The notes beneath the pieces are model-generated. The model did not search any database, was not told the origin of the DNA, and saw nothing but the letters and a program-made list of their open reading frames with translations. A DNA stretch of 64,000 nucleotides from Bacillota bacterium. GTDB lineage: Bacteria; Bacillota; Clostridia; Christensenellales; CAG-138. Shown piece by piece: positions 28,743 to 33,050 of this stretch. The DNA lies in NCBI GenBank assembly GCA_023435025.1, contig JAEYSE010000032.1, forward strand, positions 30,424-94,423, given 5' to 3'. The translations under genes and the position numbers were made by a program. Position 1 is the first letter of the stretch; each line of letters starts with the position of its first letter.

Positions 28743-28758
28743 CACTTTATGAACATAC

Positions 28759-28791
28759 AGGCTGCCATATTGCATGGCAGCCTTTTTTTTT
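28759..28791 (+). terminator. Rho-independent terminator after the NlpC/P60 gene
   Basis: The stem is AGGCTGCCAT / ATGGCAGCCT followed by T9. It lies inside the 5' part of track ORF 28749-29708. Confidence 0.85.
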
Positions 28792-28829
28792 GTACAATAC
28801 TGCATGAATCAATTTCGGGAGGGCTTCCT

Positions 28830-29708
28830 TTGACTTTATGCAACTGCTGCCCGCGGCGCTGCAACATAGACCGCGCAGAAAAAACAGGGTTTTGTGGCGC
28901 GGGGGATATTCCCCGCGTTGCGCGCGCGGCGCTCCATCACTGGGAGGAGCCGATGTTCAGCGGCACGTGCGGATCGGGTGCGGTGTTTTTTTCCGGCTGC
29001 GCGCTACGCTGCATATTCTGCCAGAACATGGACATCAGCGCGTATCAGAAGGGCGAATTGTGCGACGAAGCGAAGCTCGTTGATCTATTCTTATCATTGC
29101 AGGAACAGGGCGCGCACAACATCAACCTCGTCACGCCTACACCGCACATTGGGGCGATAAAGTCCGCGCTTTCAACAGCGAAAAAAAACGGCCTCAACAT
29201 TCCCGTACTTTATAACACCAGCGGATACGAAACGGTGGAAATGATCCGCTCTCTTGAGGGGCTCATCGACATTTACCTGCCGGACCTTAAATACGTAACA
29301 CCGCAGGTAAGTCTTGCGCTGTCCGGCGCTGCGGACTACTTTCAATTTGCGGGGCCAGCCATACTCGAAATGCATCGGCAGGCAGGCACGTTGCAGATGG
29401 ATCACGCGGGCATTGCAACGCGCGGCCTTCTGATACGGCACCTCGTGCTCCCCGGCTGCATTGACGAAACCCGGCGCGTGCTGGATTTTATAGTGAATAA
29501 CGTTCCCAAAGAAACATACCTTTCCCTGATGCGGCAGTACACGCCCGCTTCGCCTTCGTTAAAAGCGCCACTCAACCGTGCATTAACGGCGCGCGAGTAT
29601 GACCGCTCCGCGGATTACTGCCTTCAGCTTGGTCTTACTAACGTGCTGCTCCAGGAGGCGTCCGCTGCAACCTCCGCTTATACCCCGCCTTTTTTTGACA
29701 TGTTATAG
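28830..29708 (+). CDS. Radical SAM enzyme (PflX / activase-like, COG1313-type)
   Basis: I moved the start to an in-frame TTG at 28830 after GGGAGGG, because the ATG at 28749 lies upstream of the terminator. It has CNCCPRRC and CALRCIFCQN cysteine clusters. Confidence 0.75.
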   Translation: MTLCNCCPRRCNIDRAEKTGFCGAGDIPRVARAALHHWEEPMFSGTCGSGAVFFSGCALRCIFCQNMDISAYQKGELCDEAKLVDLFLSLQEQGAHNINLVTPTPHIGAIKSALSTAKKNGLNIPVLYNTSGYETVEMIRSLEGLIDIYLPDLKYVTPQVSLALSGAADYFQFAGPAILEMHRQAGTLQMDHAGIATRGLLIRHLVLPGCIDETRRVLDFIVNNVPKETYLSLMRQYTPASPSLKAPLNRALTAREYDRSADYCLQLGLTNVLLQEASAATSAYTPPFFDML

Positions 29709-29714
29709 CCGTGT

Positions 29715-29873
29715 TCACAATTTGTTTTCAAGTTTTGGGCAATAAAACACTAAATATGGCCAATAATAGTCAAATAAGCAGTTGTAAACCACCAAATATG
29801 GTGGTACAATAAATGCAAGAAGAACGTGAAAAAGATTATTTCTTTCCGTCCGGAAAACAACAGTATTCTTCAT
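29715..29873 (-). CDS. Candidate 52-aa hydrophobic/aromatic peptide (not in the track)
   Basis: My translation is MKNTVVFRTERNNLFHVLLAFIVPPYLVVYNCLFDYYWPYLVFYCPKLENKL. AAGGAGGA lies 10 nt upstream of the ATG. I found no convincing promoter of its own. It is antisense to the promoter and RNA below. Confidence 0.3.
   Translation of the reverse strand: MKNTVVFRTERNNLFHVLLAFIVPPYLVVYNCLFDYYWPYLVFYCPKLENKL
29782..29810 (+). promoter_or_regulatory. Strong sigma-A promoter in an intergenic island
   Basis: It reads TTGTAA, a 17-nt spacer, then TACAAT preceded by TGg (extended -10). Confidence 0.65.
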
Positions 29874-30021
29874 TGACTGTTCTTCCTCCTTAAATAAGAC
29901 GCAAACGAACTACTTTGTACTTCATAACCGGGACCCGGGCGGGTAGGGCAACCGAACGGGAAACGGCGACCGGACGGAATTATTCGAAACAGGGGCTGCA
30001 TCGCAGCCCCTGTTTATTTTA
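29817..30021 (+). ncRNA. Candidate ~200-nt stand-alone RNA of unknown class
   Basis: It is bounded by the promoter above and a 13-bp GC-rich terminator (AAACAGGGGCTGC/GCAGCCCCTGTTT plus a T-run, 29987-30021). No + strand gene follows. An internal 9-bp long-range helix pairs TCCGTCCGG with CCGGACGGA. It has a CUUCCUCCUU motif and a G-tract block. Confidence 0.45.
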
Positions 30022-30209
30022 GTTTCGAAAAAAGTAGCAAGCTACTTTTTCGAAGTTTTCCGCACCAGAATGGCGTAGCATCCTAGCGCGAGAGGCGTCC
30101 GATTTAAAGCACATGTCGTCAAATCGGACGTATTTATATAGATGGTTTTCAGTTTCTGGCGTTCGCAGGGCAACGGAGCTCCCTGCTTGGGAGAGTTTTC
30201 TTGTTTTGT

Positions 30210-31160
30210 TTACCCCTCGTTGCGCGCGAGCATGGCCGCTCCTACGATGCCAGCGTCGTTTCCAAGCTGCGCAGGTACGATTTTGCCGATCTCATCAAAA
30301 AAGCACTTCTTGCGTACGTTTTCACGGACGGGTTCAAACAAAAAGTCCCCCGCATGGCTGACGCCGCCGCCCAGCGCGATCACTTCTGGATCGAGCAAAT
30401 TGATGCAGGAGGTAATGGCCGAACCCAACTGGTCCACATAGCGATCAAATATATCCACCGCTATGGCATCCCCCGCCTTCGCGCAGTCAATCACGAGCTT
30501 AGCAGTCACCTTATTCATATCGCCTTCCACCGACGTGCAGATCAGCGCGTTCGGATAATCGATCACGCTGCGCCGTCCCTGCTGAATAAGCCAAGTAGAG
30601 GTGCAGACCGATTCGATGCAGCCGTGTACGCCGCAGGTGCAAAGCGGGCCGTCGTGCACAAGCACCATATGCCCAAGCTCCACCCCATGTCCCATGCCGC
30701 CGTTGAACATCTTGCCGCCTAATATGAGGCCGCCTCCTATGCCGGTACCCAGGGTGAGTAGCACGGCGGTTTTGCAGCCGCGGAATGCCCCAGCGTGGAG
30801 TTCGGCAAGAGCCGCGCCGTTCGCGTCATTGGCAAGATACACCGGGATATCCGGGTAGTGTTCCTGCATGGCCTTTTTCAACGGCACATCATGAAACTGC
30901 AGGTTATAAGCATGCAGTACACGCTCGCAGGCCGGATCGATGCTGCCCGGTACCACAATGCCGATGGACTGGAACTCTCCGCTTGCAATATGCAGTTCGC
31001 CCGCAAGCTCCTCCACAAGATTTTTCATTAGGCCAACCGTATGCGGATACGGCTTGCCCGTAGGAAACTTTATGCTGCGCCGGGCGACGATGCGCATATC
31101 ATCATCCACAACTCCGGCCGCGATATTGGTACCGCCAATGTCAAAACCCACCTGCAGCAT
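30210..31160 (-). CDS. glcK: ROK-family glucokinase
   Basis: The 316-aa ORF has VGFDIGGTNI and the ROK Zn motif CTCGVHGCIE. Confidence 0.85.
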   Translation of the reverse strand: MLQVGFDIGGTNIAAGVVDDDMRIVARRSIKFPTGKPYPHTVGLMKNLVEELAGELHIASGEFQSIGIVVPGSIDPACERVLHAYNLQFHDVPLKKAMQEHYPDIPVYLANDANGAALAELHAGAFRGCKTAVLLTLGTGIGGGLILGGKMFNGGMGHGVELGHMVLVHDGPLCTCGVHGCIESVCTSTWLIQQGRRSVIDYPNALICTSVEGDMNKVTAKLVIDCAKAGDAIAVDIFDRYVDQLGSAITSCINLLDPEVIALGGGVSHAGDFLFEPVRENVRKKCFFDEIGKIVPAQLGNDAGIVGAAMLARNEG

Positions 31161-31171
31161 ACCGCTACCCC

Positions 31172-32095
31172 CTATACGTTTTCCAATTCTTCCATCCAGC
31201 GCTTGTCGAATTCCTTGGCCGCGTCATATCCGAGCTTTTTCAACCGGTAATTGCGCGCCGCCACCTCCACGATGATTGCGAGGTTCCGCCCCGGACGGAC
31301 GGGCATGAGGATATGGGGCAATTCCACATCCAATATTGAAATGGTCTGGTCGTCAAGACCCAATCTGTCGTATGCCTTGCCGTCCTCCCACATTTCCATT
31401 TCCATGACGATGTCTATGGACTTTTCCTGTATCACGGCGCCCACGCCGTACATATACCGCACGTCTATGATGCCGATACCGCGGATTTCCAAAAGATACC
31501 GCGTCAGCGCAGGTGCGGTGCCCGAAAGCCGGTTGTCCGCCACTCTACGGATTTCCAGCACATCGTCCGCAACAAGTCGATGCCCGCGCTTGACCATTTC
31601 GAGCGCCGTTTCGCTTTTGCCCATGCCGCTTTCGCCTATGAGCATCACGCCCACGCCATATACGTCGAGCAGTACGCCATGCCTTGTGATGCTGGGCGCA
31701 AGCAGACGGTCCAGCAGATTTGTGATGGAATGGCTGACCTTGGTAGTCGGCCGGGGGCTTGAAAATATGGGGATCTGCCGTACGCGCGCCTCCTGCATGA
31801 ATGCGTCGGGCGGCTCATGATCGCGCGCAAACACCACGCAGGGGACGTCGTATTGCATCAATATCCCCACTCGATTTTGCATTTCCTCCTTGGAAAGCTG
31901 CATGAGATAGTATGTTTCCGCGTTGCCGATAAGCTGCACGCGGTCATACGCGAAGTGCTGGAAATACCCGGTCAACTGCAGGCCAGGCCGGTTGATTTCG
32001 CTTTCGGAAATCACCATATGTCCGCGACCCTTGCTTTTGATTGTCAGGCCAAGGGAATTCGCAAATTCCTCTACTGATACCGTCGTACTCTGCAC
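31172..32095 (-). CDS. hprK: HPr kinase/phosphorylase
   Basis: The 307-aa ORF has GESGMGKSETALEMVKRGHRLVADD and the LEIRGIGIIDV signature. Confidence 0.93.
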   Translation of the reverse strand: MQSTTVSVEEFANSLGLTIKSKGRGHMVISESEINRPGLQLTGYFQHFAYDRVQLIGNAETYYLMQLSKEEMQNRVGILMQYDVPCVVFARDHEPPDAFMQEARVRQIPIFSSPRPTTKVSHSITNLLDRLLAPSITRHGVLLDVYGVGVMLIGESGMGKSETALEMVKRGHRLVADDVLEIRRVADNRLSGTAPALTRYLLEIRGIGIIDVRYMYGVGAVIQEKSIDIVMEMEMWEDGKAYDRLGLDDQTISILDVELPHILMPVRPGRNLAIIVEVAARNYRLKKLGYDAAKEFDKRWMEELENV

Positions 32096-32110
32096 AATAC
32101 CCTCTCCTTT

Positions 32111-32914
32111 TTATTTCTGCAAAAGGACATTGTCTATGACCCAGGCAACGCCGTCCGCCTCACAGGCGGGCGCGATGAGCGAGGCAACATCCTTCACAAC
32201 CTGCTGTCCGTTTTCCACGCATACGCCCAGGCCAGCCATCTGTATCATCTGCAGATCCAACGTGTTGTCCCCCACGGCCACGGTTTCCGCCTGGGATATG
32301 CCCAAAAGCTCCGCTGTGCGCAGCATGGCCGTCCCTTTGTTCATGCCAAATTGGTTCAGCTCAATGAACCCGGGCTTGGAGGAGGCAACCTCCAGCCGCT
32401 CATAAAAATGCCTGTTGAAACGGGCGATCATTTCACGTTCCTGTTCACCGGGCTCGGCGTATACAAGCACCTTGGGTACATTGTGCCATTCTTTCTTATT
32501 CATATCCGGATCTACGACATAGGGTAGCCGCAGATAGGAGGTATAGCTTTGAGTAAAACCGTTCTCCTTGGCAAATATCACCGTATCATCCTGGTAGATC
32601 TGGCCGTGCAGCCCCCATTCTTGTGCGCACTCCAAAGCCTCTCTGATCAGGGCCGGGTCTATGGGGGCGCTGAATATCTCTTTGTCGGTTCTGGTATCCA
32701 TCACCCGAGCCCCGCCGTAAACGATGACGGGGCCGCGGATGCCAATCTTTTCCCATATGCCGGCTGCGCCGAGGTATCCCCTCCCCGTTGCGATGGTGAC
32801 AAATATGCCGTTCGCCTGCGCACGCCGTATTGCTTCTAAATTCTTCTCGCTGATCCGTTTGTCGCTGCCAACCAGGGTATCGTCAATGTCCAAAAAAAGC
32901 GCCTTGTATTTCAT
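32111..32914 (-). CDS. Cof-type HAD-IIB hydrolase
   Basis: The start is set at MKYKALFLDIDDTLV, which is HAD motif I. The C-terminal motif is GDNTLDLQM. Confidence 0.8.
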   Translation of the reverse strand: MKYKALFLDIDDTLVGSDKRISEKNLEAIRRAQANGIFVTIATGRGYLGAAGIWEKIGIRGPVIVYGGARVMDTRTDKEIFSAPIDPALIREALECAQEWGLHGQIYQDDTVIFAKENGFTQSYTSYLRLPYVVDPDMNKKEWHNVPKVLVYAEPGEQEREMIARFNRHFYERLEVASSKPGFIELNQFGMNKGTAMLRTAELLGISQAETVAVGDNTLDLQMIQMAGLGVCVENGQQVVKDVASLIAPACEADGVAWVIDNVLLQK

Positions 32915-33050
32915 CCGTTCCATCCTTCTTGCGTGTTGCCTTTCCTGTCGGGTATCTCTCACCCATTGTAATGAAATTCCACGCAAAATGGAAGAACAAA
33001 TTTCCCCGCATGGCTGTCACAAGCCTGCCGTAGACCGACAACAGACCTTG

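Follow-up and report, generated by a model that had tools for sequence, protein, structure and literature searches.

The stretch of DNA analysed here (the window) is a 64,000-nucleotide (nt) piece of contig JAEYSE010000032.1 in assembly GCA_023435025.1, the genome of which is referred to below as G000. Within the window, the stop codon of a PflX-like radical-SAM gene lies at 29706-29708, the 3' end of the convergent glucokinase gene glcK is at 30210, and the interval between the two is rich in A and T. An earlier note, made from the letters of the window, had described this interval (29709-30209) as an AT-rich island that holds a stand-alone RNA of about 200 nt and, on the opposite strand, a 52-codon hydrophobic open reading frame (ORF). 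All of the features that it placed in the island were found in position, and its count of 19/60 G+C for 29761-29820 was reproduced; in 100-nt segments the G+C fraction is 0.31-0.35 over 29700-29899, against 0.5-0.65 in the flanks. We conclude from the comparison of related sequences that the region encodes a structured small RNA (sRNA) of ~165-205 nt that is specific to one bacterial family.

By its sequence the RNA would be an independent transcription unit, with a promoter and an intrinsic terminator of its own and with a position and orientation that are conserved. The near-consensus plus-strand promoter proposed in the note (TTGTAA-17-TGgTACAAT) is present, and the pattern TTGnnn-17-TGnTAnAnT recurs at the corresponding position in most of 60 homologous loci, about 12 of them having a weaker or atypical version. 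Judged by eye, this combination of a TTG and a TG-extended -10 element looks more like a sigma-A promoter than a sigma-F/G promoter. The predicted 5' tail (29817-29842) differs in sequence and length between genera: in the alignments, the first 10-45 nt after the promoter vary freely in both respects, and the distance from the -10 element to P1, the helix that closes the RNA, is 11-64 nt in those homologues that have a recognisable promoter. At the other end, the predicted 13-bp intrinsic terminator is also in place, with no plus-strand gene behind it, the next gene being the convergent glcK. All 12 modelled pairs of the terminator covary in an alignment of 57 homologous sequences, in which 95.7% of the cells are paired.

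Scans of the sequence for such signals were at chance level, with one promoter found compared to 0.8 expected and two terminators compared to 1.1 expected. The predicted fold of the RNA (-67.3 kcal/mol) has a z value of -3.9 relative to shuffled sequences and that of the opposite strand has a z value of -4.3; since these values are modest and alike on both strands, the single sequence proves little. We judge the RNA to be real because it is conserved and covaries in relatives, and it is on these grounds that the stand-alone plus-strand RNA of the note is borne out and that its transcription is predicted.

A search for conservation and covariation in relatives, a check that the note had named, revealed that the structure of the RNA is conserved across the family. 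In a DNA search, all eight other species of the genus had the region at 90-98% identity, and further genera of the family had it at 71-83%. Two covariance models were built, the first from 19 sequences and the second from 57. The first located the RNA in 80 of 151 genomes of the family, representing 32 of its 50 genera, and almost always as a single copy; the second had no match when 41 other families of the order were searched (145 genomes) and matched five of five family genomes. At least one further, diverged copy (in G062) was missed by the fast filters. An exact-pattern scan of the genomes of 185,579 species gave 22 matches, all in metagenome-assembled genomes (MAGs) or single-cell genomes recorded as uncultured Oscillospiraceae, Feifaniaceae, Eubacteriales, or Bacillota.

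Two further observations concern individual genomes. In G023 (L124), which has no match to the model, the radical-SAM gene is followed by GGTCTTCCCTCCCGTTTCCGTCCGC and then by a terminator, and this sequence could be what is left of the RNA or a relative that has been greatly reduced. Three MAGs of the genus have contig breaks at the start of P1 or within a few bases of it (G003:C136, L021; G005:C2/C18, L006/L020; and G008:C161, L009), and the G005 contig ends overlap by 127 nt, the size of a k-mer. These breaks suggest strain heterogeneity in the variable region of the promoter and 5' tail.

The secondary structure is supported by covariation. In the 57-sequence alignment fitted to the model, 93.8% of the cells are in standard pairs and 33 of 33 pairs have double changes; none of 500 shuffles did as well, and partners slid out of register were 36-50% paired. 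Such an alignment leans towards its model, and RNAalifold was therefore also run on plain MAFFT alignments that are blind to structure. From 19 sequences this procedure recovered P1, part of the P3 hairpin, and the terminator; from 35 diverse sequences it recovered P1, with seven of eight pairs compensatory. P1 is the 9-bp long-range helix UCCGUCCGG/CCGGACGGA (29845-29853 / 29970-29978) recognised in the note, which in the model has 10 bp. Double changes occur at all 10 of its pairs, 97.1% of its cells are paired, and compensatory substitutions are visible in the alignments as the helix UUUCCGUCCGG...CCGGACGGAAA.

The two hairpins enclosed by P1 are less uniform. We treat P2 as weak because its stem shifts register between lineages and one lineage is without it. 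The helices of P3, a three-part hairpin, are 77-96% paired and have double changes at 11 of 11 pairs, and the whole hairpin is absent in the shortest variants (L101, L103-L109). A conserved G-quadruplex at 29930-29948 was considered and is unlikely, given that the G-tracts there are strands and loop of P3 and that other genera do not retain them.

Within the RNA, conservation and accessibility are highest in the stretch CUUCCUCCUU, which the note had already picked out as complementary to Shine-Dalgarno (SD) sequences. UUCCUCC is invariant in the 35-sequence set, and a second element upstream of it, UUCAU, is invariant in all 57 homologues, in 48 of which it is mostly within a loop or otherwise unpaired; in many lineages that loop belongs to P2. 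The mean unpaired probability is 0.89 for CCUCC and 0.67 for UUCAU, compared to 0.42 for the RNA as a whole. The P2 loop, AUUCUUCAUUG, is the complement of AUGAAGAA, i.e., of a start codon and the codon after it, so that the core UUCAU-(6-11 nt)-UUCCUCC is the complement of GGAGGAA-N-AUGAA: an SD sequence, a spacer of functional length, a start codon, and a lysine codon. In 55 of 57 sequences, CAU and CCUCC stand 6-11 nt apart, in agreement with the functional spacing of SD and AUG. Some 20 sequences, drawn from several genera, have the same 30-nt core at a neighbouring radical-SAM protein identity of just 48-84%. The RNA thus has what would be expected of a seed, namely, a conserved and accessible stretch complementary to ribosome-binding sites.

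A second single-stranded block, listed in Table 1 and also given as AACGAACUAC, is likewise conserved and unpaired, and no supported pairing partner for it was found within the RNA. Coding on the plus strand was rejected as an explanation of the conserved core, which contains indels of 1, 2, and 4 nt and has no conserved start codon or SD sequence.

Table 1. Features of the sRNA locus and its flanking genes, in coordinates of the window
Feature	Position	Strand	Remarks
PflX-like radical-SAM gene	28830-29708	+	Pfam Radical_SAM; weak matches to glycyl-radical activase models
Antisense ORF	29715-29873	-	52 aa, hydrophobic; starts MKNTVVFRTE
Sigma-A-type promoter	29782-29810	+	TTGTAA (29782-29787), 17 nt, extended -10 TGgTACAAT (29802-29810)
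Predicted primary transcript	29817-30022	+	~205 nt; start site placed ~7 nt past the -10 element
P1, 5' strand UUCCGUCCGG	29844-29853	+	Pairs with 29970-29979
P2, weak hairpin (AACAGU/ACUGUU)	29859-29881	+	Loop AUUCUUCAUUG (29865-29875)
Anti-SD stretch CUUCCUCCUU	29882-29891	+	Conservation, accessibility
Second conserved single-stranded block AACGAACUACUUUGUAC	29904-29920	+	Universal core GAACU
P3, three-part hairpin	29928-29966	+	Conserved loop GUAGGGCAA (29943-29951), GGGC nearly invariant
P1, 3' strand CCGGACGGAA	29970-29979	+	Covariation
Intrinsic terminator	29987-30025	+	Stem 29987-30015, 13 bp including 8 G-C, then U-run
A/T-flanked hairpin CGAAAAAAGUAGC...GCUACUUUUUCG	30026-30052	either	Read from the sequence
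glcK (ROK family glucokinase)	30210-31160	-	Convergent to the RNA

The RNA has a fixed place in the genomes that carry it. In nearly all of ~60 loci, from more than 30 genera, it lies behind a PflX-like radical-SAM gene and on the same strand. In 56 of 60 loci, 52-218 nt separate the stop codon of that gene from P1 (median 100 nt, n = 57), a distance that accommodates no more than the promoter and the 5' tail. Three loci (L066, L068, and L101) have the RNA with no radical-SAM gene beside it, and in four genomes of the family the radical-SAM gene is directly followed by other genes and the RNA is missing. The neighbour on the downstream side varies, glcK-hprK being found there in some lineages only. 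No terminator-like hairpin was found in any of 57 gaps between the radical-SAM stop codon and the RNA, so the radical-SAM mRNA must run into the RNA and stop at the terminator of the latter, which probably ends both transcripts. A long form of the radical-SAM mRNA that carries the RNA as its 3' untranslated region (UTR) would be expected besides the short form.

By this arrangement the RNA would be an sRNA that is embedded in a 3' UTR and has a promoter to itself. In enterobacteria, MicL and DapZ are 3' UTR-embedded sRNAs with an internal promoter, and the likeness extends to the terminator in common with the upstream protein gene and to the promoter just before the RNA. The promoter described here is situated past the stop codon, whereas theirs are inside the coding sequence, and those RNAs belong to another phylum and have no homology to this one.

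Some details of the flanking sequences were also noted. The true start of the radical-SAM gene is probably the TTG at 28830, which has GGGAGG in front of it; the mechanically assigned start, ATG at 28749, overlaps the intrinsic terminator (28759-28791) of an upstream NlpC/P60 gene, and TGTACAAT at 28791-28798 is a possible -10 element of the radical-SAM gene. Between that gene and the RNA, 12-30 nt upstream of the -35 element, there is an A/T-rich near-palindrome (AAATATGGCCAATAATAG, 29752-29770), AAAAATGGCCTATATTT-like versions of which recur in several other genera; its possible roles are those of an UP element or of a site for a regulator. On the far side of the RNA, the A/T-flanked hairpin of Table 1 falls below the requirement of the terminator scan for at least three G-C pairs; it is probably the terminator of the convergent glcK and, as such, outside the RNA. 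Another hairpin, with an 11-bp stem, a 16-nt loop, and no U-run, is found at 30094-30131, between the terminator of the RNA and glcK. The genes glcK and hprK (HPr kinase/phosphorylase) and a gene for a Cof-type HAD phosphatase form a convergent string on the minus strand (30210-32986), a neighbourhood that is kept in part of the family only.

The RNA does not belong to a catalogued family. Searches of Rfam 15 returned no match at E≤1 over 29000-31000, and at E≤10 over 29800-30030 the only matches were terminator-shaped, of a chance nature, and far below the gathering threshold. Both strands were covered, and the impression recorded in the note that the RNA matches neither 6S, SRP, tmRNA, or RNase P nor the riboswitch classes is upheld. 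The identity with 6S RNA was also rejected on other grounds, the 6S RNA of this genome being at C77:82744-82919 (L121), with a score of 76 bits that is above the Rfam cut-off.

We therefore regard the RNA as a previously uncatalogued sRNA family of a known general kind. Like RoxS/RsaE and FsrA, trans-acting sRNAs of Bacillus and Staphylococcus whose C-rich seeds pair with SD sequences, it would have a stand-alone gene in a Gram-positive host, with a promoter and an intrinsic terminator to itself, and it has a pyrimidine-rich stretch that is unpaired and complements SD sequences. It is different from these RNAs in having no match in Rfam (which presumably includes RsaE), in having UUCCUCC with a linked anti-start-codon element as its seed in place of their repeated CCC motifs, and in being confined to one family of Oscillospirales-type Clostridia. 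For FsrA, the C-rich single-stranded region is reported to interact with ribosome-binding sites (PMC4152353). CsfG (Marchais et al. 2011, as cited in PMC4152353 and PMC9147052), the one sporulation sRNA reported to be widely conserved among endospore formers, is set beside the RNA by description only: both are conserved sRNAs of spore-forming Firmicutes that have no known target. The promoter described here differs in that it looks sigma-A-like rather than of the sigma-F/G type, and the RNA is confined to a single family.

The architecture points to a mode of action. The 10-bp P1 helix closes a large loop that holds the accessible UUCAU-(6-11 nt)-UUCCUCC core, the GAACU block, and the variable P3 with its GGGC loop. 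The exposed core is the complement of a full initiation region, comprising an SD sequence, a normal spacer, and AUGAAG/A, and by pairing to mRNA ribosome-binding sites it would block binding of the 30S subunit and so repress translation. On balance we lean towards this reading, in which a transcribed RNA pairs with the SD sequence and start codon of mRNAs and thereby represses their translation; both the pairing and the set of mRNAs bound are predictions made from the core.

The searches for targets weigh against this reading. In its own genome there is no core-complementary site longer than 14 nt elsewhere. In five genomes of another lineage, a pattern search that allowed up to three mismatches to the predicted perfect target found the RNA gene itself only, apart from one extra three-mismatch site that was matched by a reversed-pattern control. 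When 14,875 starts preceded by an SD sequence, taken as candidate translation initiation regions (TIRs) of its own genome, were scanned for duplexes, one match was far ahead: C60:14136, a 66-codon membrane ORF (-45.5 kcal/mol, 46 pairs), with pairing that begins at the predicted 5' end and reaches codon 6 and a P value, by extrapolation of the tail, of ~0.05-0.1. This small membrane-protein gene (MKKIVVIGSAAVV..., C60:14065-14375; L115:3930-4240) is found in two of nine genomes of the genus and is a pseudogene here, having an internal, frame-breaking deletion of 170 nt when compared with the G008 copy (L117); in the intact G008 copy the SD region is changed and pairs less well with the RNA. 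We discounted it because it is accessory, is deleted here, and does not keep the complementarity in its other copy. The complete genome G018 (2.44 Mb) was scanned with its own RNA and the ranks from the two genomes were combined over start-consistent orthologues. Nothing rose above chance, the best rank product being 5.6e-5, a value for which ~0.9 pairs are expected among an assumed ~1500 orthologue pairs.

Four rival readings were considered. The note had favoured a type I toxin-antitoxin locus, in which a hydrophobic 52-residue toxin encoded on the minus strand would be repressed by the antisense plus-strand RNA. In this one genome the layout is as described: the 52-codon ORF with its strong SD sequence is present as quoted, and an RNA that starts at ~29817 covers its first 19 codons. 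IstR-1/TisB, SR4/BsrG, and RatA/TxpA are type I toxin-antitoxin antisense RNA systems, and they share with this locus an RNA complementary to the SD sequence and start of a small hydrophobic ORF. The ORF here, however, is neither conserved nor provided with a promoter, and the RNA is conserved as a structure independently of it. Within the genus, those ORFs that are complete have 10, 12, 15, 15, 32, 32, 34, 52, and 52 codons if counted from the conserved ATG, having been shortened by stops and frameshifts, and in other genera the ORF has 20-30 codons of unrelated sequence; the homologue L013 has one of 29 codons. What is shared is only MKNTVVFRTE (~10 codons), the codons of which are the complement of P2 and P1. 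A consensus scan of 29500-30400 found no promoter-like site on the minus strand, and the 52-residue peptide had no match in PADLOC and a mere chance match (E-value 0.16) in Pfam. Furthermore, the RNA is single copy and syntenic across the whole family, whereas type I toxin-antitoxin loci are more often patchy and multicopy. The toxin-antitoxin reading is not borne out, and we consider it hardly credible. A different use of the same strand would be a functional ribosome-binding site that serves a sequence-independent mini-ORF on an antisense transcript, under control of the plus-strand RNA. A perfect SD sequence and ATG are indeed kept on the minus strand in every homologue, with a spacer of 6-11 nt in 55 of 57, and in each genome full complementarity is found at the locus and nowhere else. 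Yet the minus strand has no promoter-like site and no conserved sequence past the terminator that could host one, the lengths of 10-52 codons fit random expectation, the third-codon positions are equally invariant, and P1 covaries as RNA, all of which makes such a mini-ORF very improbable. As the alignments are best read, the antisense ORF is fortuitous, its SD sequence and first ~10 codons being the complement of the conserved core of the RNA. The note had offered as its alternative a trans-acting anti-SD sRNA opposite a fortuitous ORF; the conserved and accessible anti-SD core and the fortuitous nature of the ORF have stood, and no target was found for the trans action. A hydrophobic ORF with a perfect SD sequence opposite an sRNA can thus be a by-product of an anti-ribosome-binding-site seed, and caution is warranted where such a layout is met.

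The radical-SAM gene raises the question of whether the RNA is instead a cis-acting 3' UTR element of the mRNA of that gene, serving as terminator, stabiliser, processing platform, or autoregulatory anti-ribosome-binding site folded back on the mRNA that carries it. The position close behind one gene and on its strand over so many genera, the lack of a terminator in between, and the changing downstream neighbour are what such an element would lead one to expect. Against it stand the conserved promoter between gene and RNA and the occurrence of each without the other in the three loci and four genomes mentioned above. Nor does the radical-SAM TIR stand out as a target, in cis or in trans: its ribosome-binding site is an average partner, ranking 6617 of 14,875 in the duplex scan, and over 51 loci the cognate pairs of RNA and TIR are no better than non-cognate ones (-19.98 versus -19.57 kcal/mol). 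We regard a cis role as unlikely. An RNA that binds a protein, as a sponge, a scaffold, or a partner of the radical-SAM enzyme, would have its protein contacts in the unpaired blocks and the GGGC loop, and an invariant single-stranded core could be equally compatible with a protein-binding site, which is one more point to set against the pairing of mRNAs. The sequence invariance of the unpaired regions across genera, the lack of a convincing mRNA target, and the strict adjacency to one enzyme gene would all suit this reading. A protein site has no need, however, of a core that is exactly anti-SD and anti-AUG at the SD-AUG spacing; the short variants do without P3 and its GGGC loop, gene and RNA each occur without the other, and PflX-type enzymes resemble protein-radical activases. 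We hold protein binding to be unlikely as well, and repression of translation by pairing with initiation sites remains the reading that we prefer.

If the RNA does pair with initiation sites, one group of genes comes to mind. In G000, 36 genes have a TIR of the form GGAGG-N5-11-ATGAAGA, and about half of them encode lipoproteins or solute-binding proteins; this share is not independent evidence, because signal peptides start with MKK. GcvB of enterobacteria represses genes of the solute-binding and lipoprotein class, and the likeness is a possible functional analogy confined to that class of targets; there is no homology, and the seed of GcvB is GU-rich and directed at CA-rich enhancers. A bolder proposal, which we offer as speculation and think improbable, is that the RNA acts as a "whole-initiation-site clamp". 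Its anti-SD element would resemble the tail of 16S rRNA and its CAU the anticodon of initiator tRNA, and with these at a ribosome-like spacing it would form two short helices with many GGAGG-N-AUGAAG/A mRNAs, largely those of secreted lipoproteins and transporter binding proteins, and so control the envelope and transport proteome of this bacterial family on a global scale. More remote still is a variant in which such a clamp works jointly with the adjacent radical-SAM enzyme.

To our knowledge, very few regulatory RNAs have been described from the Oscillospirales-type gut Clostridia, which are mostly uncultured. The existence of isolates is suggested by the complete genomes G018, G091, G116, and G173. 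The RNA described here adds a new family, with 57 aligned members that covary strongly, one copy to a genome, and a genomic position that is fixed, which makes it suitable for a database entry and for the annotation of metagenomes. Its core mirrors a complete ribosome-binding site, SD sequence and start codon at their natural spacing, an unusual property that would provide a testable hypothesis of how such an RNA may select its targets.

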